Assembly (NCBI GenBank): GCA_045644945.1
Contig: JAZRHU010000074.1
Coordinates: 97-64,096 of the forward strand
Reading direction: 5' to 3'
DNA from: Candidatus Fimimonas sp.
GTDB lineage: Bacteria; Bacillota; Clostridia; Christensenellales; CAG-314
Length of the DNA stretch: 64,000 bases
Below are positions 9,331-59,300 of the stretch, piece by piece. A program made the position numbers and the translations under genes. The number at the start of each line of letters is the position of its first letter. The stretch's first letter is position 1. A model generated the notes under the pieces. It saw nothing but the letters and a program-made list of their open reading frames with translations, ran no database searches and was not told the DNA's origin.

Positions 9331-9356
9331 TGCAAAAATCGGGGGTACGTGTTCTA
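9331..9356. repeat. ACGTG-core intergenic motif, degenerate copy
   Basis: tgcaaaaatcgggggTACGTGttcta; overlaps the rsmI stop. Confidence 0.5.
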
Positions 9357-10151
9357 TTTCTTGTCGGCAATGGTAAGTTTGTAGATGTCGTTTTTGGGAA
9401 CGTTGCGGTCCTTTGCTACTGCCTTGATGGCATCTTTTTGCGACATGCCACCCTTGATGTAGTAATCGAGGTGCTCTTGCACGGATAGCTCGCACAAGGC
9501 GTTTGTTTGGTTTTCCGCACGGTTTACAACAAGCACAAACTCGCCCTTGGTGTCGTCGATGACGTCGCTAAGATGGCAAAAACGCACACGTTCGTGGGAC
9601 TTGGAAAGTTCCTTTACAAGACAGCACTCGCGGTCGCCAAGGCGCTCGCAAAGGTAGGCCATGTTTTCTTGGATGTCGTGCACGGCCAAGTAGAAAATGG
9701 CAACGCCAACGGAGCCATCCAAAAGTTTTTCGCGGTCCTTCTTTTTTTCCGGCAAAAAGCCGTAGTAGGTAAAGGGTGGTTGGTAGCCGGAAAGCACAAA
9801 GGCGTTTACAAATGCGCTTGGGCCGGAAATAACTGTGTAAGGCAGGTTACGCTCCTTGAGTGCATTTACCAAAATGTTACCGGGGTCGTTGATACCTGGC
9901 ATGCCTGCATCGGAAATTAGCGCAATATCATCGCCACGCTCGGCAAAGGACAACACAAAATCCAAACTCATTTTTTCGTTGAATTTGTGGTAACTATACA
10001 GCGGTTTGCCTGTGATGCCGTAGTGGGAAAGTAGCACTTGCGAGTGGCGTGTGTCTTCGCAAAAGATTGCGGAAACGTTTTTTAGTGTTTCCACCGCGCG
10101 GTGTGTGATTTCCGCAAGATTTCCAATGGGTGTTGCAACAAGATATACCAT
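9354..10151 (-). CDS. rsmI: 16S rRNA (cytidine1402-2'-O)-methyltransferase
   Basis: MVYLVATPIGNLAEITHRAVETLKNVSAIFCEDTRHSQVLL is the tetrapyrrole-methylase-fold RsmI N-terminus. Confidence 0.9.
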   Translation of the reverse strand: MVYLVATPIGNLAEITHRAVETLKNVSAIFCEDTRHSQVLLSHYGITGKPLYSYHKFNEKMSLDFVLSFAERGDDIALISDAGMPGINDPGNILVNALKERNLPYTVISGPSAFVNAFVLSGYQPPFTYYGFLPEKKKDREKLLDGSVGVAIFYLAVHDIQENMAYLCERLGDRECCLVKELSKSHERVRFCHLSDVIDDTKGEFVLVVNRAENQTNALCELSVQEHLDYYIKGGMSQKDAIKAVAKDRNVPKNDIYKLTIADKK

Positions 10152-10171
10152 AATAGCTGTTCCTTTTGTTG

Positions 10172-10199
10172 ATTTTTTGGGGATACGTGGTTGATTTTG
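10172..10199. repeat. ACGTG-core intergenic motif copy
   Basis: attttttggggaTACGTGgttgattttg; fills the 52-nt gap between two minus-strand genes. Confidence 0.6.
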
Positions 10200-10203
10200 A
10201 GCA

Positions 10204-10941
10204 CTACTCTGTCAAGCCGTAGTAAGCTTTGGCTTGTGGGGTGTAGTTGCCGTGTTCGTCACAGATGTACATTGGCGCGTGCAAAATGCAGTCACTTTCT
10301 CCACCCTTCACACCACGCACAAGCACCAAATTGGGTTGACGATTGGGCGCAGGGCAAACGGGCAAAATCTCCTTGACGGCAATTTTGTTTTGGGCGCACA
10401 GTGCAACAATTTCCGCAGTTCTGCTTGCTTGGTGCACCAGGTACAAGTTGCCACGATTGTTCAAACACTTGGATGCCGATTGGATGATATCCGCCAATGT
10501 GGCGCAAATTTCGTGACGGCAAATGGCAAGGTTTTTGTCCAGTTGTTGCTCGCCACTGCCCACCTTGCGATATGGTGGATTGCACACAACAACGTCCGCT
10601 TTGCCACCTACCAATGTGTTGGCAAATTTCAAGTCGCAGTTGACAACTTCAATCACGTCCTGCAAATTGTTCAAAGCAACGCTTCTTGTTGCCATGTCGG
10701 CAAGCTGACTTTGTATTTCCAATGCCAACACCTTTTTGGGGTGCTTTTTGTGGGCAATCAAGATGGAAATAACGCCACTGCCCGTGCCAAACTCCACGCA
10801 AAACTTGCCGGACATATCCTTGCAAAAGTTGGCAAGAAGTACGGCATCGGTGGTAAAGCGATACTCGGTGGCGGACTGGATGAGTTGGAGCCCGTCGCAT
10901 TGCAAATCTTCAATTTTTTCGTTGGGAAGTAAGTTTGTCAT
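10204..10941 (-). CDS. Class I SAM-dependent N6-adenine methyltransferase (YabB/TrmN6-like)
   Basis: NPPY motif (VVCNPPYRKVGSG), SAM-binding VEFGTGSGVISI. Sits upstream of rsmI, as yabB does in Bacillus. Confidence 0.7.
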   Translation of the reverse strand: MTNLLPNEKIEDLQCDGLQLIQSATEYRFTTDAVLLANFCKDMSGKFCVEFGTGSGVISILIAHKKHPKKVLALEIQSQLADMATRSVALNNLQDVIEVVNCDLKFANTLVGGKADVVVCNPPYRKVGSGEQQLDKNLAICRHEICATLADIIQSASKCLNNRGNLYLVHQASRTAEIVALCAQNKIAVKEILPVCPAPNRQPNLVLVRGVKGGESDCILHAPMYICDEHGNYTPQAKAYYGLTE

Positions 10942-10944
10942 ATT

Positions 10945-11256
10945 TTAGAACCATCCACCTGTCAAAGAATAAGTCCAATAGAAAAAGATAAAATCTATTG
11001 CTAACAAAATAATGTTTGTCAGCAAGCAAACAAGCACGTTTTTAGTTTTTTTGTAGCCAACTATCCACGAAACAACTGTGAGATATATGGGCGAGATCCA
11101 TAACGAAGAACGACCAATAACCAAAGCGAAAAGAAATACCATCATCATCGATTCGTCAGCTAGCGACATAAAAGTGAAAAATGTTAATAAAACTGACCAC
11201 AATGGCAAAGCAAAAAATACTAAGGTTTTGATAAGTCCTTTTATTTTTGTCTTCAT
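10945..11256 (-). CDS. Small hypothetical membrane protein (3 TM)
   Basis: AT-rich with ATA/TTA codons; stop lies 3 nt before the next ATG. Confidence 0.5.
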   Translation of the reverse strand: MKTKIKGLIKTLVFFALPLWSVLLTFFTFMSLADESMMMVFLFALVIGRSSLWISPIYLTVVSWIVGYKKTKNVLVCLLTNIILLAIDFIFFYWTYSLTGGWF

Positions 11257-11289
11257 AGTTGGAGATTCCTTTTGTAAGTAGATATTTAA

Positions 11290-11775
11290 CTAGTCCACCA
11301 CAATAACCTTTTTGCCGATGGAAGTGAGGTATTTTTTGAAGTCGTCCAAGGTTAGCACTACTGTTGCGGTGTTATCGCAAGGGTGAAACTTGACGCGGTT
11401 GGCATTCCAAACACTTTCGTCAATGAGCAAAGGCGCCGAGTAGGTTGCCGTATCCTCGTTGAGATAGGCAAAGGGGGAAACGCTACCGCGGTGCACACCA
11501 AGGTCATTGAGTAGTTTTTCCTCGGTGGCGAACTCGAATTTGGCACATCCCACAAAGCTTGCAAGGTGGCGCATTTCCGCACGTTTGTCGAAAGGCAACA
11601 CCACAAGGTAAAAGTTGTCGCTCTTTTTGTCCTTGACGTACAAGCTTTTGCAAGACATGCAGTTGTCTACGTGTATCACTTGGCGAGATTCCTCGGTGGT
11701 TACCACCGCTTGATGGCGCAGTAGCTCGTAGGCCACGCCTATTGAGTTGAGATAGTTGGTTACTTTGGTTATCAT
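11290..11775 (-). CDS. YbaK/ProX-type aminoacyl-tRNA editing domain protein
   Basis: Size about 160 aa; motifs CKSLYVKDKK...LVVLP...GSVSPF...FHPCDNTATV are typical of the YbaK/EbsC family. Confidence 0.65.
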   Translation of the reverse strand: MITKVTNYLNSIGVAYELLRHQAVVTTEESRQVIHVDNCMSCKSLYVKDKKSDNFYLVVLPFDKRAEMRHLASFVGCAKFEFATEEKLLNDLGVHRGSVSPFAYLNEDTATYSAPLLIDESVWNANRVKFHPCDNTATVVLTLDDFKKYLTSIGKKVIVVD

Positions 11776-11886
11776 GATATTAAATAATTTGCAAATTGTA
11801 GTTTAATAGAATCATTATATCACATTTAACAAAAATGTTCTACACATTTGCAACAAAAAGAAAAAGTTCCGCATTTGGCGGAACTT

Positions 11887-11933: not shown

Positions 11934-11958
11934 GGCGGGAGGGCAACCCCTCCCCTAC
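11934..11958 (-). repeat. REP-like GTAG-headed hairpin
   Basis: Minus strand GTAGGGGAGGGgttgCCCTCCCGCC. Confidence 0.65.
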
Positions 11959-12819: not shown

Positions 12820-12883
12820 TTATACACTTATCCACAAAGTTATCCACAGTTATCCACAATTTAGGTGGACAACCTGTTCCACA
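12820..12883 (+). promoter_or_regulatory. DnaA-box cluster
   Basis: Three perfect TTATCCACA boxes at 12828-12836, 12840-12848 and 12850-12858. Three 2-mismatch boxes at 12820-12828, 12865-12873 (inverted) and 12875-12883. Confidence 0.75.
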
Positions 12884-13141: not shown

Positions 13142-14383
13142 ATGAGTTTTAATCCATTTAAGGAGCAACCACTAAAAAGCGCCAACGATTTTTACAGTTG
13201 GAAACAACTAGCATTGAAGCCCTACAACAAGTTTGACGTCGATCCCTACACACGCGTTCGCATCATTTTGGCAGCGGGTGCCGAGTTCGAGGCAGTTTGG
13301 TTTGGACATCAGTTCCACCGCCATTGCGACAACAACGACCTAAGGCGCGAGCTTGCCATAACCAGACGTCACGAACAGCAACAACAAAAGCGCATTGCCA
13401 GCTTGAAACCCATTGGCGAAGGCATCTTGGAGCACACCATTGGCTACGAGCAACTTGCCGTTGACCTTACCGCCATCTTTGCCCAACGCGAAAGCGACAA
13501 GTACGTGAAAATGGCAATGGACTTTGCGCTTTTGGAGGACTTCGACCATCTGTACAGATATGCCGACCTTTTGGAAATGGACAAGGGCATTGTTGCGGAA
13601 AAGCTTGTTGGTGGCTACACCGAGCTTATGCCTGGTCGCCCAACCATTGCCGAGCACCGCTTCCCAACTGACGACATCAAGCGGTACGTCAACTTTAAAA
13701 AGGCAAACAGCCTCACCAAGTTGGACATCAACATTTTGACGGCTGCCGAGCAACAAACAATGAACTACTACATGAACCAAGCCAACTTTTACCAAAACAA
13801 GATGGGCCGTCAACTTTACACAGAAATTGCCATGATCGAGGAGCAACACGTTTCCCTTTACGGCGGACTTAAAGACCCAAATTGCACCTGGCTAGAGGAA
13901 AACTTGATGCACGAGTACACCGAGTGCTACTTGTACTACAGTTTGTGGCAAGACGAAACCGACCCACTTGTAAAAAAGGTGTGGGAGCAACACTTCAATG
14001 ACGAACTATCCCACTTGCACAAGGCGGTGGAACTGCTCAACAAGTACGAAAACAAAGTGTGGGAGCAAGTCATTCCCAAGGGCGAGTTCCCCGAGCTACT
14101 CAAGTTCCGTTCCAACATCGACTACGTTCGCGAAGTGCTCAAAAACACAGTCAACCTTACCGGCGCTAGGGAAGACTACACGCCAGTTAGCGAAGTGGCA
14201 AACGACAGCAAATTTTTTGAATATCAAAGCCAAGTTAACGTCAAAGACTCAGACGTTGCTAGCCATTGCGTAATCACAAAGTACATTGCCGACAACAACC
14301 GCGACTACCGCTTTGAAACTGCCGAGCACCCCGTTGTGGAACTGCGCGACCGCAAGGTAGACAACACAACTGTGGGTAGATAG
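13142..14383 (+). CDS. Ferritin-like (di-iron four-helix-bundle) superfamily protein, function unknown
   Basis: ATG at 13142 after AAGGAG. Several ExxH/E...H motifs (EFEAVWFGHQFH, EEQH, DELSHLH). Confidence 0.45.
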   Translation: MSFNPFKEQPLKSANDFYSWKQLALKPYNKFDVDPYTRVRIILAAGAEFEAVWFGHQFHRHCDNNDLRRELAITRRHEQQQQKRIASLKPIGEGILEHTIGYEQLAVDLTAIFAQRESDKYVKMAMDFALLEDFDHLYRYADLLEMDKGIVAEKLVGGYTELMPGRPTIAEHRFPTDDIKRYVNFKKANSLTKLDINILTAAEQQTMNYYMNQANFYQNKMGRQLYTEIAMIEEQHVSLYGGLKDPNCTWLEENLMHEYTECYLYYSLWQDETDPLVKKVWEQHFNDELSHLHKAVELLNKYENKVWEQVIPKGEFPELLKFRSNIDYVREVLKNTVNLTGAREDYTPVSEVANDSKFFEYQSQVNVKDSDVASHCVITKYIADNNRDYRFETAEHPVVELRDRKVDNTTVGR

Positions 14384-14548
14384 TTTGGTGATATCGCACT
14401 AAAAAATTTGACACAGACGATATAAATCCACCTTGATAAATTCGAATACTTTTGCAAGCCAAATTTTCGTCAAATGAAATTTGAGTTATGCTATTGTTTT
14501 TTGTTGTTTTTGATGGAATTTAGCAGTGTTTTCCATAGTAAAACTACT

Positions 14549-14580
14549 GCAAAAACACACCACGTGGTGGCAAAAAATGC
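14549..14580. repeat. CACGTG-core intergenic motif copy
   Basis: gcaaaaacacacCACGTGgtggcaaaaaatgc. Confidence 0.7.
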
Positions 14581-14589
14581 AAAAATAAA

Positions 14590-14619
14590 GACACAGGAAC
14601 GCTCCTGTGTCTTTTGTTG
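14590..14619. terminator. Terminator between convergent genes
   Basis: GACACAGGAacgcTCCTGTGTC, then TTTTGTTG, preceded by an A-run. Confidence 0.75.
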
Positions 14620-14698
14620 TTTTGCTCAATTGTTAAATCTTATTTGTGACCTGATTGCTTGCATAGTTGCGTTACAAACAGGACACTTCGGGGTGTGA

Positions 14699-15145
14699 TT
14701 ATTTGTGAATATACAATCTCGATGGGCCGTCGGCACTATCTACCATACAGAAAAAATCCCAACCATATCTTTCGTAAAAGCCAACGTGGTCGGTCACAAG
14801 GTAAACTGGGCTAATGCCCTTGGATTGCAAATCCTCTACCGCCATGTTCAAGAGATTGCCGGCAATTCCGTTGCCACGATGTGCGTTTTCGGTGTAGACA
14901 GCGCAAATGTTGGGAGTCAAATCCTTTCGATTGTGGAAGTCGTTTTGGATAACGCCAAGGCAACCAACAATTTGATCGCAACACAAGCAAAGATACCAAC
15001 CAAGTTCCGTTTGGCCGTTTAGGTATGCTTGCATGCACTCGACGTACGCTTCCGTTGGCACTCCCCACTTGGAGGAAAACCACTTGGCCGATTGCTCCAT
15101 CAACTGTGGCTGTTCGCGCAGGGTTATGTAGGTGTAGTTATTCAT
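14699..15145 (-). CDS. GNAT family N-acetyltransferase
   Basis: Start moved to ATG 15145 (MNNYTYITL), 1 nt after the pepT stop. HRGNGIAGNLL acetyl-CoA loop. Confidence 0.75.
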   Translation of the reverse strand: MNNYTYITLREQPQLMEQSAKWFSSKWGVPTEAYVECMQAYLNGQTELGWYLCLCCDQIVGCLGVIQNDFHNRKDLTPNICAVYTENAHRGNGIAGNLLNMAVEDLQSKGISPVYLVTDHVGFYERYGWDFFCMVDSADGPSRLYIHK

Positions 15146-15146
15146 A

Positions 15147-16364
15147 CTATCTATCCTTGTAGATATCCACAAGGTTAAGTGCAACTTCGTAGGCTTTGTA
15201 CATGTCTTCCAAAGGAATGTACTCGTAACGTCCGTGGAAGTTGTAGCCACCGGTAAAGATGTTGGGGCAAGGAAGACCTTCGTAGCTCAAGCGTGCGCCA
15301 TCGGTGCCACCACGGATTGGGCAAACGTGAGGTGTTACGCCTGCGCGTTCCATTGCAAGTTTGGCATTGTCCACCAAGTGGATGTGTGGAGCAACCTTTT
15401 CCTTCATGTTGTAGTAGCTATCCACAATTTTCACGTCAACTGTGCCAGCGCCATGTTTTGTGTTGAGAAAATCCACAATTTGTTGGAAAAGCACCTTTTT
15501 AGCCTCGAACTTGGCTCTGTCGTGGTCGCGAATGATGTATTGAACAACAGCTTGTTCGCAATCGCCATTGATATCTGTAAGATGGAAGAAGCCTTCGTAG
15601 CCTTCGGTGTACATTGGGTTGTCGAAAGCGGGGAGCAAGCTTTGTAGTTCCATTGCAATCAAAACCGCGTTTACCATCAAGCCTTTTGCTGAGCCTGGGT
15701 GAACGGACTTGCCGTGGATAACCACCTTTACGCCAGCAGCATTAAAGTTTTCGTATTCCAATTCGCCAAGGCCACCACCATCGATTGTGTAGGCGCCATT
15801 TGCACCAAAGCGTGCAACATCAAAGAAATCGGTACCACGTCCCACTTCTTCGTCGGGAGTGAAGGCAATTTTGATTTCGCCGTGTGGGATTTGTGGGTTA
15901 GCAACAAGTGTTTCCGCAAGGCGCATGATAACTGCCACGCCAGCTTTGTCGTCAGCACCCAAAAGTGTTGTGCCGTCGGAACTGATGATGGTTTTGCCAA
16001 CGTGAGCGGAAAGACTTGCAAACTCGCTTGGGGAAAGCACACGACCTTCGGCAAGGGGGATATCTTTGCCATTGTAGTTGGATGTGATGATGGGTTTTAC
16101 ATTTGCGCCACTAACTGCGCTGGACGTATCCACGTGCGCGATAAAACCAAGTTTGTAGGTGCTAGTTGTGTTGGCAGGGATTGTTGCATAAACGTAGCCG
16201 TTTTGTTCGTCCATTTCCGTTTGGATGCCAAGGGCTTTGAGTTCGTCACGCAAAAGTGTGAGCAGATCAAATTGCTTGCGACTGCTTGGATATTGTTCCA
16301 CATCGGGAACGGATTCGGTATCGATTGCTACATATCTAAGAAAGTTTTGAAGTAGTTTGTTCAT
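15147..16364 (-). CDS. pepT: Peptidase T (tripeptide aminopeptidase, M20B)
   Basis: Start at ATG 16364 after AAAAGGAA. MNKLLQNFLRYVAIDTES, HVDT, GADDKAGVA motifs. Confidence 0.85.
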   Translation of the reverse strand: MNKLLQNFLRYVAIDTESVPDVEQYPSSRKQFDLLTLLRDELKALGIQTEMDEQNGYVYATIPANTTSTYKLGFIAHVDTSSAVSGANVKPIITSNYNGKDIPLAEGRVLSPSEFASLSAHVGKTIISSDGTTLLGADDKAGVAVIMRLAETLVANPQIPHGEIKIAFTPDEEVGRGTDFFDVARFGANGAYTIDGGGLGELEYENFNAAGVKVVIHGKSVHPGSAKGLMVNAVLIAMELQSLLPAFDNPMYTEGYEGFFHLTDINGDCEQAVVQYIIRDHDRAKFEAKKVLFQQIVDFLNTKHGAGTVDVKIVDSYYNMKEKVAPHIHLVDNAKLAMERAGVTPHVCPIRGGTDGARLSYEGLPCPNIFTGGYNFHGRYEYIPLEDMYKAYEVALNLVDIYKDR

Positions 16365-16415
16365 GGTTATTTCCTTTTTTGGGGATTGAAGTTGTGCAAT
16401 ATAGTTTTGTGTTTT

Positions 16416-16440
16416 GCGGACGACCAAAGGTCGCCCCTAC
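16416..16440 (-). repeat. REP-like GTAG-headed hairpin
   Basis: Minus strand GTAGGGGCGACCtttGGTCGTCCGC. Confidence 0.6.
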
Positions 16441-16454
16441 GAATTTAAATCCAC

Positions 16455-16485
16455 TTTGCCGTCAAAAAACGCAGGGATTGTGAGA
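16455..16485. repeat. 31-nt direct repeat, copy 1
   Basis: tttgccgtcaaaaaacgcagggattgtgaga. Confidence 0.9.
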
Positions 16486-16626
16486 AAGTCATAAAGTCGC
16501 TCGAACAATAAATGGGTGTTTAGCGTAGCGATTTGACGAATAAAACGCAAACAAGAACCACATTGTTGCGAAGGAGCATACCTGGAAGGTCTGTGACTGA
16601 ACAAAATGTGGGAGATTGTGCAGTGT

Positions 16627-16659
16627 TTTGCCGTCAAAAAACACGCAGGGATTGTGAGA
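16627..16659. repeat. 31-nt direct repeat, copy 2 (2-nt insertion)
   Basis: tttgccgtcaaaaaacacgcagggattgtgaga; abuts the stop of the HD gene. Confidence 0.9.
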
Positions 16660-16664
16660 GCGAC

Positions 16665-17252
16665 TTAACCTCGGTCTTCGTCGATGTAGGTGGCAAGGAT
16701 GTCCGCAGTGTGGAGGTAAAGTGCAAGTTTGTACTTGGCGTAGGCATCGCTCAACGCGTAGCTTCCACCCTTGACGCGCTCGTCAAAACCGCCCATGTGC
16801 CAGTTGATTGCCATTGCTTCTTCCGCTGTCAACTTGATAAATTGGCTGGCAATAAACACAGATTTTTCGCCATGGCCGTAGGGGAAACGCTCGGCAACCT
16901 TGTAGAAAGGTTGTTGCACCCAAGTGCCGTTTTCCTTGACGTTGCGCATTTCAATTGCGTAGTAGTTGACCTTGCAAAGGTCGTGGAGTAGGCCACAAAT
17001 GGCAATTGTTTCGTCCGAGAAGGTCTTGTTGTACTCTTCGCCCAAATCGGCCTTGATTAGCTTTACAAGGCGGTTGTAGACGTTGATGGAGTGGTAGCAA
17101 AGGCCACCCTCCTCCGCCGCATGAAATCTTGCTGATGCAGGCGCTGTAAAAAAGTCGTTGGAAACAAGGTAGTCCAACAATTTGTCGGCACCATCGCGCT
17201 TGATGTGCGTTGTGTACAATGCGATAAATTCGTTTTTGAAAGTTTCAATCAT
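16665..17252 (-). CDS. HD-domain metal-dependent phosphohydrolase
   Basis: H...HD signature (RFHAAEEGG...GLLHDLCK), about 195 aa. Confidence 0.7.
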   Translation of the reverse strand: MIETFKNEFIALYTTHIKRDGADKLLDYLVSNDFFTAPASARFHAAEEGGLCYHSINVYNRLVKLIKADLGEEYNKTFSDETIAICGLLHDLCKVNYYAIEMRNVKENGTWVQQPFYKVAERFPYGHGEKSVFIASQFIKLTAEEAMAINWHMGGFDERVKGGSYALSDAYAKYKLALYLHTADILATYIDEDRG

Positions 17253-17567
17253 GTGTTACTCCTTTGGCAAAACATTGCAAAAATTTAGCAAAATTTTGTG
17301 GCCTGCCTGATACATACAAGCATTTGATAGCACTATTATATACCATTAGCTACAAATTTTCAATAAATATACGGATATTTCCGTAAAATTGATAACAATG
17401 CCTGTTTGCATGCAAAGCAAAGCGCCAAACAAAACCCTGTTGAATGGCACTTCGACATGTAACAAAAAACTTTTGCGCAAGTTGCAAACTGCGTTGTAAC
17501 ACTTTTTTGAGAAAAACCATATTGTGAATTAGACTGTGAAAGTCAAAACTAATTGGAGGTATAAAAA

Positions 17568-17795
17568 ATGTTCAATGGATTGTTCAATGATGGCCCAGGC
17601 CCAGACTGTGGTCACAACCAAACACCTTGTGGCGGTTGCAACTGCACGTGGATTTTGCTCATTTTGTTGTTTGTTTGTTGCTGTGGTGGCAAGATGAGAA
17701 ACTTTAACCTTTGCATCAACCCAACTTGCCTAATTTTGATGGGCGCATTGCTTTTCTGCTGTGGTGGCGTAAAAATTGGCGACGGTTGCAAATAA
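17568..17795 (+). CDS. Small Cys/Gly-rich membrane peptide with internal duplication
   Basis: SD GGAGG lies 8 nt upstream of the ATG, and a terminator follows. Two halves each hold a hydrophobic helix ending in CCCGG or CCGG. Confidence 0.6.
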   Translation: MFNGLFNDGPGPDCGHNQTPCGGCNCTWILLILLFVCCCGGKMRNFNLCINPTCLILMGALLFCCGGVKIGDGCK

Positions 17796-17817
17796 CACGC
17801 TTACATAGGAGACCAAA

Positions 17818-17843
17818 GGGGGAACGAAAGTTCCTCCTTTTTT
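17818..17843 (+). terminator. Rho-independent terminator
   Basis: GGGGGAACgaaaGTTCCTCC followed by TTTTTT. Confidence 0.8.
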
Positions 17844-17900
17844 GCAACAAAAAAGCGGAAGAAACGTTGTCTTCCGCCGTTATTTTGTAGTTAGATTTGC

Positions 17901-17930
17901 GCAAAAACACACCACGTGTGCGCAATTTTT
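17901..17930. repeat. CACGTG-core intergenic motif copy
   Basis: gcaaaaacacacCACGTGtgcgcaattttt. Confidence 0.7.
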
Positions 17931-18899
17931 CTATTTTTTGTTGTGGTGCTTTGCGATGTCGTACTCGCGGTTGGCAAAGCCCTTGCCGATAACTTCGCGA
18001 ACGTTTTCTACGTAGGCAAATGCATTTGGATCCACCTCGTTGATAACTCTGCGCGCCAAAGTGAGTTGGTTTTTGGCAATTACGCAAAGGATCATTGTCT
18101 TTTCTTGACGGGAAAATCCGCCTGTAACCTTGACGGATGTTGTGCCGTGCTTTAGTTGTGTTTGAAGTGCATCAACCATTTGTTCCGGCTTGTCGGTGGT
18201 GATTTCCAACTCGATTGCGGAGGAAAAACCGCGATAGATACGTTCTTGAACAATTTCGCTAACAAACACCGCTGTTACCGAGTAGACAAGCATGTTGAAT
18301 GCATCACTACCATGACTTGTGTAGCTCCACATTGCTGCAGCACCAAAAGCGATAACGGCAATGTCCACAGCCAAAATGGCACGCATTGCACCGCTACTGC
18401 CCTTGGTTGCGTTGCGACCAACAATAAGACCAACAACGTCGCTACCACCAGTGGAAGCGTTACGGGTGAGCACCAATGGCAAACAAATTCCGCGCAATGC
18501 ACCGCCTACCAAAACGTACACAACCTTGTCCAAATCTTGGCCTTGGTTGATAAACTTGTTGAAGATGTTTGCTACACCCAACAAACGCAACACAATCATG
18601 ATTGTTGCCAAGCTAGAGATGTAGAAAAATGTGCGTTTTGCAAAGGATTTGTTTACTGCAAAAAACAAGTAGATACAAATAGGCAAGTTGATAGCAAACG
18701 TCCACACACCTGCGGAAAGATACCATTTGGAGCTATCCAGCCCTGTAAAAATCATATCCAACACTCCAGAGATACCTGTGGAACTACCTGCAATGCAACC
18801 ACTTGGGAACAAAAATACCTCCAAGGAAATTGCAGATACAAGCGCAGCTACAAATATTACGATAAAATCCAATAGATCACTTTTTCTTTGATTGTTCAT
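17931..18899 (-). CDS. YitT family (DUF161/DUF2179) membrane protein
   Basis: Start moved to ATG 18899 (MNNQRKSDLLDF...). GGSDVVGLIV motif and a C-terminal DUF2179-like domain. Overlaps the upstream paralog by 23 nt. Confidence 0.7.
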   Translation of the reverse strand: MNNQRKSDLLDFIVIFVAALVSAISLEVFLFPSGCIAGSSTGISGVLDMIFTGLDSSKWYLSAGVWTFAINLPICIYLFFAVNKSFAKRTFFYISSLATIMIVLRLLGVANIFNKFINQGQDLDKVVYVLVGGALRGICLPLVLTRNASTGGSDVVGLIVGRNATKGSSGAMRAILAVDIAVIAFGAAAMWSYTSHGSDAFNMLVYSVTAVFVSEIVQERIYRGFSSAIELEITTDKPEQMVDALQTQLKHGTTSVKVTGGFSRQEKTMILCVIAKNQLTLARRVINEVDPNAFAYVENVREVIGKGFANREYDIAKHHNKK

Positions 18900-19839
18900 T
18901 TGTTTTGTAACTCCAGTTGAAAGTTGGACGAGAAAATACGTCGTAGACATCCTTGACGATGGTAAATGCATCGGGGTCGATGTCGGCAATGATTTGTTTG
19001 AGTATTGGCGCTTGCTTGGATTGCACCACAACCACAAGCATCTTGCGAGGGGTGCCATCGTAGCAGTTGTTTGTGTCGGAAATGTTAAGACCGCGCTTGA
19101 ACTTGGCTACAATTGCATCGGTAAGCTGTTGGCTTTTGCCTGTGACGATAAGGAACTTTTGTGGGTTGTTGAATCCACGTTGAAGCATACCCATAAATTC
19201 GCCAGCGATAAGCACAAACAAAAGTGAGTAGGCAATGATCCAAAAACTTTCCCCTTCCACAACCATGATTACCACACCACCAATAATCGTCAAAGCAAAG
19301 TTAAGTATGGTTATCACTTTGGATAAATCCACTTCGGGACGCTTTACGCTGATAACTCTACCAATGATTTCCGTTCCGCCGTTAGATGCATTGTTGACAT
19401 AGGCAACGTACATGCCACTACCTAGTAGCACGCCACCAATGATGGTGGAAATGATGCGCGACTCGGAAAATTGGAAGGTGGGGAACCACTCGGGCAAAAT
19501 AGACATGGCCACAGTGGATACCACAATGGAAAAGATGGTTTTTGCAGTAAAATCGCCACGCAAAAATACCAATGCCAGTATCATGATGGGCACGTTGAAT
19601 GCCATGTACAAAATGGGCATCAGTTGCTCTACTGTGACTGTGTCCACAAAGGAACAAACCACAAAGGAAACCGCACTTGCCACACCTGTGATACCACCAG
19701 CAAAAAGCTTTGTTGGTGTAACAAAGGTGTACATGGAAATTGCAATCAACATCGATGCCACAAACACAGCAAAATATTCAGTTATCCATTTCCAAATACT
19801 CTTTTTGTTTTGCAAAGTTTGCACTCCTAAAACTCGCAA
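18877..19839 (-). CDS. YitT family (DUF161/DUF2179) membrane protein
   Basis: FVTPTKLFAGGITGVASAV, GGTEIIGRVIS. Start uncertain: TTG 19839, or TTG 19815 which sits 7 nt after AGGAG. Confidence 0.7.
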   Translation of the reverse strand: MRVLGVQTLQNKKSIWKWITEYFAVFVASMLIAISMYTFVTPTKLFAGGITGVASAVSFVVCSFVDTVTVEQLMPILYMAFNVPIMILALVFLRGDFTAKTIFSIVVSTVAMSILPEWFPTFQFSESRIISTIIGGVLLGSGMYVAYVNNASNGGTEIIGRVISVKRPEVDLSKVITILNFALTIIGGVVIMVVEGESFWIIAYSLLFVLIAGEFMGMLQRGFNNPQKFLIVTGKSQQLTDAIVAKFKRGLNISDTNNCYDGTPRKMLVVVVQSKQAPILKQIIADIDPDAFTIVKDVYDVFSRPTFNWSYKTNEQSKKK

Positions 19840-27811: not shown

Positions 27812-28342
27812 TTAGATTAGTGGTTGAAGTAGACCAATTGTTCCGTCCTTACGGCGGTAGACAATTTCCACATTGTCGTTTGCATCATTAACAAACACGT
27901 AGAAGTCGTGATCCAACATTTCCAAATTTTCCACAGCTTCCTCGGGGGTCATGCGTGTAACTTCGAAGGACTTAACCTTGGTGATTTCCAACTGACCTCT
28001 TGGTTCCACATCGGAAACAAATTCGAATTCGTTGGGAACTTCGGGCATCTTGTGGGATTTGGACAATTTGTCGCGATGCTTGATGATTTGACGTTCGATC
28101 TTTGGCAAACATGTATCAATGTTGTAGTACATTGTGTCGCCGGACACTTCCGCACGAATGTAGTTGCCGTGGTAGTTGATGGCAATTTCCATTTTGCAAC
28201 TGCGTCCTTGGTCTGTCAAAACAATCTTGCAGGGGGTGTTGCTATCTGGGAAATACTTGTCCAAACGTCTGGTCTTGGAAACCAAAATTTGCTCAAGTCT
28301 GTCCGTAACATGATAGTTTTTGGTTACAATTTCGAGTTTCAT
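27812..28342 (-). CDS. hpf: Ribosome hibernation-promoting factor, long form
   Basis: Start at ATG 28342 after GGAGG. MKLEIVTKNYHVTDRLEQ...LDKYF, C-terminal dimerisation domain DHDFYVFVN...VYRRKDG. Confidence 0.85.
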   Translation of the reverse strand: MKLEIVTKNYHVTDRLEQILVSKTRRLDKYFPDSNTPCKIVLTDQGRSCKMEIAINYHGNYIRAEVSGDTMYYNIDTCLPKIERQIIKHRDKLSKSHKMPEVPNEFEFVSDVEPRGQLEITKVKSFEVTRMTPEEAVENLEMLDHDFYVFVNDANDNVEIVYRRKDGTIGLLQPLI

Positions 28343-29978: not shown

Positions 29979-29991
29979 AACACTAAAACTT

Positions 29992-30013: not shown

Positions 30014-30027
30014 ATCTACAAACACAA

Positions 30028-37592: not shown

Positions 37593-37596
37593 TGTG

Positions 37597-40455: not shown

Positions 40456-40467
40456 TGTTTGTTCTCC

Positions 40468-41547
40468 TTAGGTTAGTTCCCTTTGTCCTTGCAAAATGGC
40501 GGTAACGCCACCATTGCTTGTGACAAATTGTGTATTTGTTACTACAAAGTTGCATTTTGAAAGTGCCAATTGTAGTGATTGCTGTGTTAGATCGGCTATG
40601 CACTCGTCAAAGGTGGCTTGCACTGTAACAAGTGCCATTTCGTGATAGGTTACACGTTGCACGCACAAATTGAGTGGGTGCAAGTAGGTGGTTTTGGTTT
40701 CCACTTGATAGTTTGTGTAGCTACACACTCTTCCATAGGTTTTGCCAAACAATACCACTTGAGTGAAAGTTTGGCTGTTGCCCGTTGGTTGCAGTTGCGT
40801 TTTGATGCCGGTGTAGGGAGCAAAAGCGGAAACGCTTTGTACCACTACCACTTTGCCAAGTGCGTACACATCTTCCTGCGTGTCGTCGTTGAATTGTCGC
40901 ACACCTGCAATAAGTACGTCCCCGGTTTTTACGATGTCACCCGCCTTAACAAGGGGTGTGCCTTGCTCGCACAAAATGCTTTTGATAACACCGTTGCATG
41001 TTGCAACAATGTCCCTGCGCTTGTGCATGTCGATGGGCTTGTTAATTTGCTTTTTTGCAATGGTATCCACGTACAAAATGCTACCTTTGCGGGTTACAAC
41101 GGCGTACATCACATCCAAGCGTGTGGCAAGGGCATTTTCCAGATGGTCGATGTTGATACCCTTCAAATTGGTGCCAACGTTAACACCAAGGGCGTCCATT
41201 TGCGCCACTACCACATCCGTTGCGACATCGCCAGTTACCACAATTTTGCAACAAACATTGGACAACACAGCACATCCAACCACCATCAAAATGATGGCCA
41301 AAATCAGCACAAAATGTCCTTTTGCAAAGGCAAGCCAAGTTGTGCTACCAAAATTTTGAACCTGTGTGACGGCATAGTTGCGGTCGCTGAGAATACCAAG
41401 CAAAGCTTTTGCATCCTTGTGTTGTACTGTGATGGTGCAGGTTTGTCCGCATTTGGTAACGGACAGTAATTTTAGACCGCTTTTGCAAAGATAGTTTAGT
41501 AGTCTTACAATATTCAATCCGCAAAAGGTAACTTTGGTGTAACTCAT
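40468..41547 (-). CDS. yqfD: Sporulation protein YqfD
   Basis: Synteny yqfC-yqfD-phoH; N-terminal VTFCGLNIVRLLNYLCKSGLKL plus a single central TM. Confidence 0.75.
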   Translation of the reverse strand: MSYTKVTFCGLNIVRLLNYLCKSGLKLLSVTKCGQTCTITVQHKDAKALLGILSDRNYAVTQVQNFGSTTWLAFAKGHFVLILAIILMVVGCAVLSNVCCKIVVTGDVATDVVVAQMDALGVNVGTNLKGINIDHLENALATRLDVMYAVVTRKGSILYVDTIAKKQINKPIDMHKRRDIVATCNGVIKSILCEQGTPLVKAGDIVKTGDVLIAGVRQFNDDTQEDVYALGKVVVVQSVSAFAPYTGIKTQLQPTGNSQTFTQVVLFGKTYGRVCSYTNYQVETKTTYLHPLNLCVQRVTYHEMALVTVQATFDECIADLTQQSLQLALSKCNFVVTNTQFVTSNGGVTAILQGQRELT

Positions 41548-41837
41548 TGTGTTACCTCAACAGCGTGAATTGTGCCCACAACCACCGCAAAGCGGTTATC
41601 TAGGCATTTGATTTGCAAGTTGCTCCCAACAACAATCAAACTGCCTTTGCCCACCTTGAAAGATACTTTGCAAGTTGAGTAGTCCAAGATACCCTTGTGC
41701 CCTTCCAAAACGATAGTGTTGCCACCAAAGACGGAGTATTTGTAGGTGACAAGGGAAGTTAGTTCCTCGCCACAAATTTTGTTGATACAGCTTGTAAAAG
41801 AATTATTCATACCCTTAGTATATGATGGGGTATGCAA
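41544..41837 (-). CDS. yqfC: Sporulation protein YqfC (YabP/YqfC family)
   Basis: About 95 aa with the pattern VLEGHKGILDYSTCKVSF...LIVVGSNLQIKCL; 4-nt overlap with yqfD. TTG start at 41837, or alternative ATG at 41810. Confidence 0.7.
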   Translation of the reverse strand: MHTPSYTKGMNNSFTSCINKICGEELTSLVTYKYSVFGGNTIVLEGHKGILDYSTCKVSFKVGKGSLIVVGSNLQIKCLDNRFAVVVGTIHAVEVTQ

Positions 41838-41847
41838 TTTTTTACCT

Positions 41848-44325: not shown

Positions 44326-44439
44326 TTTTCCTCTTGGCATAGTAGCCGAGTATATCTTGATATATTATTATAGCACTAAATTATATACAAAATCAACCAT
44401 TTGGAAAAATTTACCTGTGCTGTTAGGCAAAATTTGTAC

Positions 44440-44482
44440 AAAAAAAGAGCAATCACAGGGAAAAATCCTCATTGATTGCTCT
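44440..44482 (-). terminator. Rho-independent terminator
   Basis: Minus strand AGAGCAATCAatgaggatttttccctgTGATTGCTCT followed by TTTTTT. Confidence 0.75.
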
Positions 44483-44673
44483 GATAGTTGCAGTTGATTG
44501 CTTTGATGGTTGCAAAATTTGATACTAAAGTATCAAAAATACCTTTGCTATGCAAAAGCGTGTTGATGTACGTTGTTTGAAAATCGTTGACCGCAAACAT
44601 TTGCGTTGCCAATTGCCATACTCATACAGTTTGCAACAAATGCTTACGGACGTTGTTGGTAAAACTGGTCACT

Positions 44674-45615
44674 CTAGATGATGTTGAGCACTTCGTTGAA
44701 CAGGTAGAAAAATCCGTACATAAACAGTTGTGTGCCAAAGTACACCCAAATGGAGTACTTACCACAAAATGTGATTGGGCTAACCCACTTGGAGTTGAAC
44801 TTGGGGAACAGGGTTGTACGTTCCTTGTAGAGGTACTTGCCAAGGAAACCACCCACCAAAAACCAAGCAAAATCGGGGAAAAATGCAAGGTAGTCGCCAC
44901 CCCAAAACTCGCTAAATCCGGGAACGGAACTGCTGTGTTGTGCAAGGAAAAACCAAATGCGGTTTTCGTCCGTCCAAGGTTTTACCTTTGCTTGGTAGCC
45001 AACGATAAGCACTGTGATGATGATGGCAAACATAATCCAGCCGTAAAGGTTGTGTTGCCAATCTTTTTTGAACTTGCTTGTTAGCCACTCCAACCCTGCC
45101 CAAATAAGCACCGACAAGGCAATCACGTGGATAACGTTAAAGTTTACTGTTACGTCCGCACCCAAAATGGAACTTGCAGCAAAAGTTGCAGCGGAAAGTA
45201 GCAAAGCAAAACAAATCATCTTGATGGCGCGTTTGCCGTTGGAGTTGGAAAATGCACAGGATACACCCGACGTGAACACGAACATGGATACAAAAGTATC
45301 GTGTGTTAGTGAGCGAAGTCCGTATGCACTATAGTAGGAGCGAGCAACCTTTTCCAACCATTGGAACAATCCCGTTTGGAAAGGATTGGAACTGCCAAAG
45401 TAGACATCCCACATAAAGTGATCCCACACCACAAACAAAATCATGAATCCGCGCAAAAAGTCCACTTCCCAAATGCGCTTGCGTGGCGCAAGTGAGGTAT
45501 CCTTTTCGAGAGCGGTAACTTCTGCTTCGATTTCCGCTTGGGTTGGTTGAGTTGTTTGTTCCACCACATTTTCTGGTGGAAGGTCTTGTTTTCTTGGTTT
45601 GCGAATTTTTGTCAT
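44674..45615 (-). CDS. DUF1624/acyltransferase-like polytopic membrane protein
   Basis: RIWEVDFLRGFMILFVVWDHFMWD is the motif I associate with heparan-alpha-glucosaminide N-acetyltransferase-like DUF1624 proteins. Acidic, Pro-rich N-terminal tail. Confidence 0.5.
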   Translation of the reverse strand: MTKIRKPRKQDLPPENVVEQTTQPTQAEIEAEVTALEKDTSLAPRKRIWEVDFLRGFMILFVVWDHFMWDVYFGSSNPFQTGLFQWLEKVARSYYSAYGLRSLTHDTFVSMFVFTSGVSCAFSNSNGKRAIKMICFALLLSAATFAASSILGADVTVNFNVIHVIALSVLIWAGLEWLTSKFKKDWQHNLYGWIMFAIIITVLIVGYQAKVKPWTDENRIWFFLAQHSSSVPGFSEFWGGDYLAFFPDFAWFLVGGFLGKYLYKERTTLFPKFNSKWVSPITFCGKYSIWVYFGTQLFMYGFFYLFNEVLNII

Positions 45616-45653
45616 AGTTAGTTACTCTTTTAGGTTAGTTTGTGTAGCATTTT

Positions 45654-45690
45654 GCGCAAAAAAACGCCGACACGTGATTGATTTTTGCAA
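45654..45690. repeat. CACGTG-core intergenic motif copy
   Basis: gcgcaaaaaaacgccgaCACGTGattgatttttgcaa. Confidence 0.65.
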
Positions 45691-45696
45691 GTCAAA

Positions 45697-48179
<2,483 letters not shown>

Positions 48180-48515
48180 GGGGTTTCTCCATAAAATGTA
48201 TTGTAGGCAATGTGCCAAAAAAAGCTAAATTGAGTGCAAAAAAATGCCAAAAGGCAGACTCTCCCCTTTTGCGGAAAGGCCTAGATTGTTGGATATTTCA
48301 CTAAAAAACTATGGGATAACTAGCAAAAACGCCTAGTAAAAATTACAAAATAAAAACAAAACTACTAAATGTACCAACATTATACAACACATTTGCACAT
48401 TTGTCAAATGCAAAAATGTGTAAAAAAGTTGCCTGCTCGTTAAAAAATGCCCATCTTGTGCAAAAACACAAGCAGTTGTGATAAATTTGTTATCACAATT
48501 AGTGTGTTATTTCCG

Positions 48516-48544: not shown

Positions 48545-48559
48545 AGGTGTACAACTTAA

Positions 48560-48720
48560 TTGATAGAGGTTGCGATTTTTATGACAAGCTCAAGCAGTCA
48601 GGAATTTGTTTGAGTGGTAAAGGAAAAGTCGCCGAAGGTTGTTGCTTGAACCTGAAAGAGCAACTGCCTGGGACTACGTAGAACATGCGTAGGACTGTCG
48701 CTAAACGCGGAGAGCTATCG
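48560..48720 (+). promoter_or_regulatory. Lysine riboswitch (L-box)
   Basis: gATAGAGGttGCGA ... GGTAAAGGaaaaGTCGCCGAAGG ... CTGGG ... gGACTGTCgc ... GGAGAGCTATCg; P1 pairs GATAG with CTATC. Matches my recollection of the L-box core. Confidence 0.8.
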
Positions 48721-48738
48721 CACTTGTTTTGGTTACAA

Positions 48739-48776: not shown

Positions 48777-48875
48777 TGCAAAAAAACGTCAGTTTTTTGG
48801 GAATAAACCTTTTTGTTCCAACAAAAAAACGTCAGTTTTTGGGGAATAAGACTTTTTTATTGCAAAAAGACAAAA
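48769..48875. repeat. Imperfect tandem repeat, about 2.5 units of 40-44 bp
   Basis: ctttttattgcaaaaaaacgtcagttttttgggaataaac / ctttttgttccaacaaaaaaacgtcagtttttggggaataagac / ttttttattgcaaaaagac. Confidence 0.8.
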
Positions 48876-53044: not shown

Positions 53045-53075
53045 CAAAAGACCGCTCGATTGAGCGGTCTTTTTT
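53045..53075. terminator. Bidirectional terminator (dehydrogenase gene / dnaJ)
   Basis: AAAAGACCGCTCgattGAGCGGTCTTTTTTT. Confidence 0.85.
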
Positions 53076-53095
53076 TGCACTTTAGGAGGATGTGC

Positions 53096-53211: not shown

Positions 53212-53247
53212 GATTTTTTGAGGATACGTGGTGTGTTTTTGCAAAAG
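53212..53247. repeat. ACGTG-core intergenic motif copy
   Basis: gattttttgaggaTACGTGgtgtgtttttgcaaaag. Confidence 0.7.
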
Positions 53248-54478: not shown

Positions 54479-54513
54479 GCAAAAATATGCACCACGTGTT
54501 CGATTTTTTGAGG
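54479..54513. repeat. CACGTG-core intergenic motif copy
   Basis: gcaaaaatatgcacCACGTGttcgattttttgagg. Confidence 0.7.
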
Positions 54514-54560
54514 CTAGATTGCTGGAAATAGTTAATTAGCCCTCTCCGTCAACTTCGTTG

Positions 54561-54586
54561 CCACCTCTCCCAAAGTGAGAGGCTAC
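54561..54586 (-). repeat. REP-like GTAG-headed hairpin
   Basis: Minus strand GTAGCCTCTCactttgGGAGAGGTGG. Confidence 0.55.
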
Positions 54587-58233: not shown

Positions 58234-58302
58234 GTTTTTCTCCGTTTTGCAACTCATTTTTGAGTTATTTTGCAACTTTTTGTCAGTCTTAGGTGTTATT
58301 TG

Positions 58303-58329
58303 TTAGCACTCTCGTGTGTCGAGTGCTAA
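58303..58329. promoter_or_regulatory. CIRCE operator (HrcA binding site)
   Basis: TTAGCACTC-tcgtgtgtc-GAGTGCTAA, a perfect match to consensus TTAGCACTC-N9-GAGTGCTAA. Confidence 0.95.
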
Positions 58330-58340
58330 TTTACACTACC

Positions 58341-58369
58341 AATATACCATTATATTTGCCATTTGTCAA
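58341..58369 (-). promoter_or_regulatory. sigma-A promoter of the hrcA operon
   Basis: Minus strand TTGACA, 17-nt spacer, TATATT, directly upstream of CIRCE. Confidence 0.7.
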
Positions 58370-58571
58370 GATTATTATTCACTTTTTTTGCAAATTTTGT
58401 AAAGTTGAAAGATTGCTGAATGGGCTTTGTTGAAGAAATGATGCCAAACACACTCTCGCAATACCAACGCAAGCTTCCCTGCGACATAAATAATGATAGT
58501 ATCAAAGAATATATATAAATAAAAATATACAGGCGAGAAATGGCTCGCATCAGAAATGGCGATCTTACAAA

Positions 58572-58601
58572 TAAAAATGCACTCCCAAAAGGAAGTGCAT
58601 T
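58572..58601 (-). terminator. Rho-independent terminator
   Basis: Minus strand AATGCACTtccttttgggAGTGCATT followed by TTTATTT. Confidence 0.65.
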
Positions 58602-58632
58602 TAGAGTTAGATATCAAGTTTTGTTGACAATA

Positions 58633-59226
58633 TCAGGTATTCCAAGAGAGATCGCTATCGTCCTTGCCGGTAAAGTGGCGGACAAGGCGAATTACCACGT
58701 AGGCGCCAACAACAATCCAAACGTTAAAGATCAAGCACAAAATTGCAATGCCGATTGCCACAAACAAGGAAAGACGAGCTGCGATGCTTGCGCCAGACTC
58801 TCTCCAATCGTGCCACTCTTCCACGTACCAATCTACGTCTGGTGAAAAGATGTGATGCTCGGTGTGGCTGTAACGTGTTTGGTAGCCACCGCCGTAGTAG
58901 TTGCGCTTGAACATTGGTGTGTAGCTAAAGTAGTTGATGGAGAAAAACGCAATGCTCATCATTACCGCCATCATGCCGTAGGTGCTAAAGTCTGTTTGCT
59001 CTTGATTGAACATTGTGGACATACCAATAGCAATAAACAATGCAATCAAGCAGTAGATAACATAGATAATGATGCCAATAACCCTAATTTTGGATAGCCA
59101 AGTGAAGATTGTGCGAGTCAACAACAAATTGACAAAGTACAAAATTGTAAACAATAGTGGCAAAATGAAAATTGCATTGCCAAGGCCATCGACGTTTCGG
59201 CCCAAAAGTTCGAAAAGTACAAACAT
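58633..59226 (-). CDS. Hypothetical polytopic membrane protein
   Basis: Start moved to ATG 59226 after AAGGAG (MFVLFELLGRN); the ORF-track start at 59457 runs through an intergenic motif. No family recognised. Confidence 0.55.
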   Translation of the reverse strand: MFVLFELLGRNVDGLGNAIFILPLLFTILYFVNLLLTRTIFTWLSKIRVIGIIIYVIYCLIALFIAIGMSTMFNQEQTDFSTYGMMAVMMSIAFFSINYFSYTPMFKRNYYGGGYQTRYSHTEHHIFSPDVDWYVEEWHDWRESGASIAARLSLFVAIGIAILCLIFNVWIVVGAYVVIRLVRHFTGKDDSDLSWNT

Positions 59227-59262
59227 TGTTTTCTCCTTTTTCGTGTGGTATTTGTGTGTTTT

Positions 59263-59300
59263 GCACAAAAATGTGGGACACGTGGTTGTTTTTTGATACG
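59263..59300. repeat. CACGTG-core intergenic motif copy
   Basis: gcacaaaaatgtgggaCACGTGgttgttttttgatacg. Confidence 0.65.

Follow-up and report, generated by a model that had tools for sequence, protein, structure and literature searches.

Proteobacteria have well-described families of short interspersed intergenic repeats, among them repetitive extragenic palindromes and bacterial interspersed mosaic elements (REP/BIME), ERIC and Correia elements, and the DNA uptake and uptake signal sequences (DUS/USS). In Firmicutes such repeats are poorly known, and uncultured gut Clostridia have hardly been explored for them. BIMEs also carry extra-palindromic protein-binding modules, an example being the IHF-binding RIP/RIB motif of BIME-1. 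In the classification of REPs, a terminal GTAG or CGTC tetranucleotide serves as the REP tag, and the survey of GTAG/CGTC REPs includes no Firmicutes (PMC3733652). Here we examine a repeat built around a CACGTG core in a 64-kb stretch of DNA from Candidatus Fimimonas sp., an uncultured animal-gut member of the Christensenellales; this whole stretch is called the window below. A sequence-only reading had reported eleven sites in it, all intergenic, and all eleven are present and intergenic; the positions 9331, 10172, 37561, 53212, and 29992 that it quoted are arm starts, whereas our core coordinates denote the first base of YACGTG. The repeat is a lineage-specific intergenic family related by descent, like REPs, and it departs from them in having no hairpin and in a constrained core that lies between phased A/T tracts. 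Our favored reading, to which we assign a probability of roughly 45%, is that it is a propagated REP/BIME-like intergenic module recognized as double-stranded DNA by a putative protein.

An intergenic repeat family centered on CACGTG

The CACGTG repeat family is real, and its pattern lies far above chance. In the window, GCAAAAA-N3-12-YACGTG matches 8 times, against 0.31 expected from shuffles. Bare YACGTG is not enriched (57 observed versus 67 expected), and the signal therefore resides in the context. Among pairs of A/T runs spaced 12-24 nt apart, 8 of 74 hold a central YACGTG, for which the chance estimate is ~0.6; the top-ranked hexamer in the run-flanked context is CACGTG, and an unsupervised repeat search independently finds the family as D1, D3, and D6. 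GCAAAAA is itself frequent in the intergenic DNA of this genome, at 4.5 per kb, but the estimated number of chance co-occurrences is still below 0.5. CACGTG overall is modestly above expectation (36 versus 23.7, third-order Markov model). The repeat occurs about once per 4-6 kb, and extrapolation of this local density gives an inferred genome-wide copy number of a few hundred.

The family had been described as a symmetric 30-bp palindrome. The conserved unit is instead asymmetric, comprising an A-run, a C/A-rich arm of 3-5 nt (4-5 nt in the conserved form), CACGT(R), a G/C-rich arm of 4-8 nt, and then either an A-run or a T-run. The right-hand run is T in about half of the sites and A in the remainder, an A-run following after 4-6 nt of arm and a T-run after 5-8 nt; a few copies have a T-run in place of the left A-run. 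One right arm, TCGGCG, precedes A5 at one locus and T6 at a second. The tracts are separated by 16.3 +/- 1.2 nt and, measured from center to center, lie 22.1 +/- 1.0 bp apart, about two helical turns, with the core midway.

A stop codon is no more than 40 nt away from seven of the eleven copies and 130-240 nt away from the other four, so that the earlier description of every copy as just past a stop codon was too general. Pfam confirms the gene names (methyltransferase/RsmI-like, YbeY, Era, RecO, DnaK, DnaJ, MnmA, YitT, and CitMHS/ArsB), and the name YqzL comes from the Pfam tag on the 39-aa gene of relatives. The genes that neighbor the copies are functionally unrelated. In what follows, minus-strand copies are written in minus-strand reading, and loci of relatives bear L numbers.

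Copies 1 and 2 border the rsmI-like gene. Copy 1 (9332-9362, minus strand, core 9346) reads ...AAGAAATAGAA-CACGTA-CCCCCGA-TTTTTGC; its core is 2 nt past the rsmI-like stop codon, which its left A-rich arm overlaps, and its ortholog is a full A6...T5 copy in L182, while in L081 a true terminator hairpin lies between the right arm and the T-run. Copy 2 (10173-10198, minus strand, core 10184), which reads CAAAATCAAC-CACGTA-TCCCC-AAAAAA and has no T-run and no hairpin, fills the 52-nt spacer within the operon from the methyltransferase gene to the rsmI-like gene, and its orthologs are at L081:1104 and L182:7229. Copy 3 (14551-14577, plus strand, core 14561; AAAAACACAC-CACGTG-GTGGC-AAAAAA) stands in a convergent intergenic region, with a canonical bidirectional terminator 22 nt downstream. 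Copy 4 (17903-17930, no strand assigned, core 17913; AAAAACACAC-CACGTG-TGCGCAA-TTTTT) is 12 nt past a YitT stop codon, and true terminators are found farther along in the YitT direction (~17850-17885). Its ortholog at L182:14855 is a perfect palindrome, AAAAAAACGCACCACGTGGTGCGTTTTTT, with a 6-bp stem. This one copy, in a relative, is a true palindrome; the idealized one proposed earlier matches no copy in the window and is a composite of different copies.

Copy 5 (29985-30012, plus strand, core 29996; AAAACTTGCAC-CACGTG-GTGCC-AAAAAA) is 18 nt past the CitMHS/ArsB-like stop codon. It is the sole copy in the window with a 5-bp stem, and the separate strong terminator that had been noticed about 30 nt past it is at 30026-30056; its orthologs are conserved, with L162 reading TACGTG. 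Copy 6 (36255-36281, plus strand, core 36265; AAAAAACGCA-CACGTG-GTGGC-AAAAAA), in the era-yqzL gap ~45 nt upstream of the yqzL start, is identical in 10 of 10 orthologous loci, while the sequence upstream varies. Copy 7 (37562-37590, minus strand, core 37575; AAAAAACACA-CACGTA-TCCCCAAA-TTTTTGC) is 17 nt past the ybeY stop, and copy 8 (45658-45686, minus strand, core 45671; AAAAATCAAT-CACGTG-TCGGCG-TTTTTTTGC) is 21 nt past that of mnmA. Copy 9 (53214-53240, minus strand, core 53225; GCAAAAACACAC-CACGTA-TCCTC-AAAAAA) follows the dnaJ stop by 40 nt, with the true terminator ~150 nt farther on (53046-53080); like copy 2, it has no T-run in the direction of transcription. Copy 10 (54481-54509, minus strand, core 54493; AAAAAATCGAA-CACGTG-GTGCATA-TTTTTGC) sits in the dnaK-dnaJ gap, downstream of the dnaK terminator. 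Finally, copy 11 (59267-59294, minus strand, core 59279; AAAAAACAAC-CACGTG-TCCCACA-TTTTTGTGC) falls inside a mechanically called open reading frame (ORF), yet a 197-aa gene has its real start ~53 nt downstream of the copy. The counterpart of this copy in L172 is ~100 nt downstream of TTGACA-N17-TACAAT, and thus copy 11 is probably in a 5' untranslated region (UTR).

Intergenic placement also holds for relatives, in which strict matches (pattern given below) in five annotated sequences, ~88% coding, are intergenic in 18 of 18 cases. Some ~18 independent sites, which include new ones outside the window, divide into 7 convergent, 11 co-directional, and no divergent ones. The copies at 14561, 17913, and 29996, the site after clpX in L172, and L182:2577 all have a stop codon on one side and a canonical terminator of its own standing on the other.

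A family without hairpins, related by descent

The sequence-only reading had suggested that the copies could act as weak bidirectional terminators but are not simply that. We folded 54 nt around each of the eleven copies, on both strands, with RNAfold and compared the results with shuffled sequence. The copies fold at 0 to -15.8 kcal/mol, the shuffle means being -1.1 to -10.1, whereas six true terminators in the window fold at -15.8 to -19.9 kcal/mol. Five of the eleven are at least 2 sd below the shuffle mean on at least one strand but reach only -7.8 to -15.8 kcal/mol; better-than-shuffle folding, by 1-2.9 sd, is seen at 14561, 17913, 29996, and 59279 and on the plus strand of 37575. A consensus scan of 28000-47000, a region with five copies, finds only 29996 to be terminator-like, with its 5-bp stem. 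The two arms are non-complementary in most copies. The copies are not terminator hairpins, and most cannot form a hairpin; ten of the eleven are without a significant one, several stand upstream of a true terminator, and the weak-terminator description fits at most two or three.

What is conserved is primary sequence, as had been proposed. Among orthologous copies, 2 of 66 core columns (3%) are variable, compared with 18% in the arms, 20% in the runs, and 17-22% in flanking intergenic DNA, and selection appears to act on the core alone. Both core changes are transitions at the outer position. One-mismatch variants of the core in the run-flanked context are almost only TACGTG/CACGTA, with a single CACGTC, so that the invariant part is CACGT.

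The family is restricted to a single lineage, which is represented here by ~80 kb of non-redundant sequence. With a strict pattern (A5, N3-7, CACGTR, N3-8, then T5 or A5), there are 8 matches in the window and 59 in 311 kb from 21 loci of close relatives (at least 90% protein identity). More distant relatives give no match in 2.36 Mb, of which 392 kb are at 65-85% protein identity. The absence of matches beyond close relatives implies that the family is young and lineage-specific. The surroundings differ as well. DnaJ of the window is 85% identical to that of a metagenome-assembled genome (MAG) from roe-deer caecum and ~65-73% identical to those of Clostridia/Christensenellales-like MAGs from rabbit, chicken, and human gut. 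In L001, the relative at 85% DnaJ identity, both dnaJ flanks are without the motif, and copy 9 is absent. In L082 and L083 (79% Era identity; ~10000 and 10888-11000), ybeY and era abut without a spacer, whereas the window has a 192-nt gap there (37405-37596). The era-yqzL spacer is 112 nt without a motif at 79% Era identity versus ~295 nt in the window (36216-36510). Distant relatives have compact spacers, or none, at the corresponding places. Intergenic regions have expanded in this lineage, with the family arising during the expansion.

Copies at unrelated loci share more than the core. AAAAACAACCACGTRTC is found in 4 independent loci, and GCAAAAACACACCACGT, TTTTTTGSSACCACGTG, and GGGGATACGTG in 3 each, all with no match in 3.0 Mb of other DNA; CACGTRTCKGCG, a 12-nt pattern, is found in 4 independent loci, with 3 matches in the same 3.0 Mb. 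Strings of 11-19 nt common to three or four non-orthologous loci indicate that the copies are related by copying, not by convergence. Turnover is also visible among close strains. Two copies 177 nt apart follow mnmA in L163-L165, REP-like insertions occur upstream of copy 8 at the mnmA locus of some relatives, and an additional copy stands after clpX in L172-L174 and L178. In L182 a 160-nt insertion comprising a motif, a terminator, and a promoter splits an operon; at that point the spacer is 15 nt long in the window and in L081. Three different alleles of one convergent spacer occur among strains, and indels cluster at the junctions of arms and runs. The suggestion of a mobile or propagated element thus gains from the restriction to one lineage, the shared strings, and the presence/absence polymorphism that comparison of orthologous intergenic regions brings out among close strains.

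A terminator-plus-promoter module at ~3500-3545 of the window also has a counterpart at a second locus in a relative (L182 2650-2700: TTTTTTGTT..ATCGTTGAAAT.ATCTAAAA..GTA.AGTATAATG), where it is part of the 160-nt operon-splitting insertion. This suggests that promoter and terminator cassettes are likewise copied around.

A proposed protein-recognized module and its alternatives

In the reading that we favor, the module would have spread by copying in the ancestor of the species group while the intergenic regions of that group were growing. A sequence-specific protein would then recognize the duplex, probably bending the DNA. The interchangeability of A- and T-runs, the tight phasing of the tracts, and the palindromic, constrained core together point to recognition as double-stranded DNA by a protein. 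The core and the phased tracts are also compatible with the candidate site for a dimeric protein that was proposed from the sequence at the start. The putative protein might be a host factor of the architectural or roadblock type, or an enzyme that maintains the repeat, and would occupy gene 3' ends and the gaps between cistrons, a placement like that of the protein-binding modules in enterobacterial BIMEs. Both the binding and its effect are inferred from sequence.

Several observations weigh against this reading. First, at 5-6 bp the core is shorter than a typical helix-turn-helix dimer would call for, and its constraint was measured on few, closely related metagenomic assemblies. Second, copies are anchored to the upstream stop codon, not to promoters, and the four divergent intergenic regions contain none; such anchoring would be expected just as well if the role were at the RNA level, or if insertions were simply tolerated at 3' ends. 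Third, CACGTA is the reading of some 7-8 of 10-12 asymmetric cores when the sense or majority-gene strand is followed, and the sense-strand flanks are C-rich (92 C versus 54 G, against 765 versus 709 in the intergenic background). Such strand asymmetry, mild as it is, would not be expected of a purely symmetric DNA site. These orientation statistics are weak, and in them the directions of transcription and replication are confounded.

Of the alternatives, the one that survives best, although we consider it doubtful, is that the repeat is a purely selfish or neutral small mobile element, resembling a REP or a MITE (miniature inverted-repeat transposable element), where CACGT is kept only because the copying enzyme (a transposase, recombinase, or nuclease) needs it, with no gain to the host. 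The lineage-specific burst, the subfamilies with 11-19-nt strings in common across loci, and the copies that are present, absent, or duplicated among close strains would all be expected of such an element. So would its co-occurrence, in expanded spacers, with a second mobile-looking class (GTAG plus hairpin), and its depletion from divergent, promoter-containing regions, as tolerated insertions predict. However, neither target-site duplications nor terminal inverted repeats are seen at insertion junctions, and no associated transposase was found, the sole IS30-like gene, in a relative, being unrelated to the motif. Moreover, the core is kept in place at orthologous sites while the arms drift, which in a dead copy would need continuing gene conversion.

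A second alternative, which seems unlikely to us, places the function in RNA. An unstructured CACGUR flanked by A and U, in 3' UTRs or between cistrons, could serve RNase processing, mRNA stability, or the loading of Rho or an RNA-binding protein. Every copy is where transcription is expected (beyond a stop codon, between genes that are co-transcribed, upstream of a terminator, or within a 5' UTR), the copies are without structure, the sense transcript reads CACGUA at most asymmetric cores with flanks that are C-rich and G-poor, and Rho is encoded in the window (Rho_RNA_bind is found in the relatives' ortholog of 46770-48218). But A-runs and U-runs are not equivalent in RNA, and yet either can follow the same arm. 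No fewer than two or three of the asymmetric copies run antisense to the gene next to them (L182:2577, L172:2341, and, with respect to the nearest stop, the GalK/NFACT site), and it is not obvious what tight phasing of the tracts on the helix would mean for an RNA.

Third, the copies could be decayed or weak bidirectional intrinsic terminators, descended from a form in which an A-tract and a U-tract flanked a 5-7-bp stem with an ACGU loop, one arm having since been lost in most copies. They resemble such terminators in several respects: flanking A- and T-tracts on opposite sides, a palindromic center, a position past stop codons at gene 3' ends, enrichment in convergent spacers (7 of the ~18 independent sites), and a T-run followed by GC (TTTTTGC) that matches the tail of true terminators here. 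The 5-bp stem at 29996, the perfect palindrome at L182:14855, and the L081 hairpin between right arm and T-run are in keeping with it. We nevertheless regard this as improbable because a usable stem is missing in ten of the eleven copies, an A-run stands where the U-tract would be expected at about half of the independent sites, and it is the "loop" that is conserved instead of the stem, the arms evolving neutrally with no compensatory change seen. In addition, many copies precede or follow a separate strong terminator, one fills the 52-nt spacer within an operon, and more distant relatives have no structural equivalent.

Last, and very improbable in our estimation, is a mark of self, either a signal like a DNA uptake sequence or the targets of an orphan CACGTG methyltransferase kept in intergenic DNA; the short lineage-specific core, the helically phased A/T tracts, and the 3' intergenic placement resemble the uptake sequences of Haemophilus, and the core changes, only C-to-T and G-to-A at the outer position, are those that deamination of methylated C would give, but 5-6 bp of core are too few to tell self DNA from other DNA, CACGTG is only modestly over-represented, coding DNA holds no copies, and sequence-specific uptake is not known in Firmicutes.

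The reading as a propagated, protein-recognized module can be extended in a bolder direction. Seeded by a self-propagating 30-bp element, the copies might form an array of docking sites at gene ends for a lineage-specific DNA-bending protein, which would act as an insulator or roadblock, aiding termination and separating transcription units. This is a long shot, and less likely still is a variant in which the motif serves for self-recognition in the manner of a DNA uptake sequence. If the insulator/roadblock version were true, it would represent a protein-based counterpart of hairpin terminators in a bacterium. More generally, should a binding protein exist, an abundant gut lineage would have a new protein-DNA system that extends across the chromosome. 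On a practical level, terminator predictors and motif-based tools for regulons could misread the copies.

Neighboring elements and comparison with known systems

The spacers contain a second intergenic family, consisting of GTAG plus a G/C-rich hairpin (for example, GTAG-GGGAGGGGTTGCCCTCCC-GCC), with members at 11934-11958, 16416-16440, 30121-30146, 36331-36356, and 54541-54586, all in minus-strand reading. Four that were folded gave -8.9 to -16 kcal/mol. These modules share their architecture with GTAG-tagged REP elements and are carried by some close strains but missing from others, with other alleles in L081, L162, and L163. In the dnaK-dnaJ spacer a 77-nt REP-like module abuts the A-run of copy 10 in the window and in L175 but not in L172, L179, L180, or L181.

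Other features of the window are recorded here in their own right. TTGCAAA and longer strings that extend it are very frequent; the 7-mer occurs 156 times, versus 113 expected under a third-order Markov model, at 6.6 per kb in intergenic and 1.8 per kb in coding DNA, and among relatives its density differs widely, at 0.2-3.2 per kb. Three DnaA boxes (TTATCCACA) lie within 31 bp at 12828-12858, in the divergent gap between an amidase-like gene and a 413-aa gene, with no dnaA nearby in the window. At 17569-17795, on the plus strand, the large spacer by the YitT genes holds a Cys/Gly-rich ORF of ~75 aa, where L182 has a 74-aa gene call. A lysine riboswitch (Rfam RF00168, 85 bits; 48556-48725, plus strand) precedes an amino-acid ABC transporter operon, and between the two a 36-nt sequence, CAAAAAAACGTCAGTTTTTKGGGAATAA..., occurs twice, 43 nt apart (48779-48814 and 48822-48857). 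The hrcA-grpE-dnaK-dnaJ operon has a perfect CIRCE element upstream of it (TTAGCACTC-N9-GAGTGCTAA; 58303-58329). Upstream of the trigger-factor gene are two 69-nt direct copies, 93% identical and 591 nt apart (63327-63395 and 63918-63986), which hold a long inverted repeat, CAATGACGGCCCCTTACGGCTCTGCCCATTG. In L249, a ~6-kb insertion (13600-19600) with an IS30-like integrase (HTH_38 plus rve) and small genes stands after a terminator, between a 120-aa gene and tig; the insertion is unrelated to the motif.

A number of known elements were considered and set aside. By-eye comparison of the copies with the IHF consensus WATCAANNNNTTR and with the LexA, cre, and Rex consensus sequences gave no fit. 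IHF is generally lacking in Firmicutes. A MITE is not indicated by the filled site in L182 and the empty site in the window and L081, which show no duplication, the outer ends being only homopolymer runs. An operator of a transcription-factor regulon was rejected on the placement of sites (7 of ~18 convergent, none divergent) and on the unrelated functions of neighboring genes. Copies upstream of genes, inspected by eye, gave no consistent fit to a sigma-70 promoter (a TTGCAA-type -35 with a -10 at 16-18 nt), to a sigma-54 promoter (GG-to-GC spacing of 10-13 versus the 12 needed), or to an extracytoplasmic function sigma factor promoter (AAC-N16-17-CGT), and a promoter scan of 28000-47000 called none at the copies there, canonical promoters existing elsewhere in the window. 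Rfam finds only the lysine riboswitch in the window. A5-N5-CACGTG-N5-T5 occurs in 59 stretches of viral contigs, but those with multiple matches are true parS sites or real hairpins, and none is like the repeat, which speaks against a phage origin. L172 has a 216-aa gene between two copies, but this gene is not related to the window's own 216-aa gene, so a shared mobile gene flanked by copies was discarded. Our search of the literature on CACGTG-centered bacterial repeats or operators found nothing relevant.

Among described systems, parS (TGTTNCACGTGNAACA, a 16-bp palindrome) shares the CACGTG core and, in contigs of phages and plasmids, even has A5 and T5 on its flanks. The repeat, however, lacks the GTTTCAC half-sites, and eleven copies in 50 kb are far too dense for parS, whose sites are usually within genes near the origin. 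Allowing up to 3 mismatches, parS has 9 matches versus 7.5 expected, none of them at a copy of the motif. The DUS of Neisseria and the USS of Pasteurellaceae offer a second parallel, in that they have a lineage-specific short core, with phased A/T tracts nearby in the case of USS, and are frequent in 3' intergenic and terminator DNA, sometimes as inverted pairs. The repeat differs from them in its core of 5-6 rather than 9-12 bp, in having no coding copies, and in a density about fivefold lower (about one per 4-6 kb versus about one per kb).

The comparison with REP/BIME elements is the one that our favored reading takes up. The repeat has no stable stem-loop and no GTAG or CGTC tag, is A/T-rich and not G/C-rich, and is conserved in its central hexamer; no gene for a RAYT (REP-associated tyrosine transposase, IS200/IS605-like) was found in the ~80 kb of non-redundant lineage sequence. 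It thus departs from the classic repeat types in lacking a hairpin and in a constrained part that is only a hexamer, placed between helically phased A/T tracts. Its recent origin, alongside intergenic expansion and GTAG-tagged hairpin modules, makes it a natural system for asking how non-coding modules invade a compact genome and gain constraint. Like REPs and BIMEs, it is short (20-40 nt), high-copy, and species-specific, it occupies intergenic DNA at 3' ends and in convergent spacers, its spacers are mosaic and variable among strains, and it adjoins separate GTAG-plus-hairpin modules.

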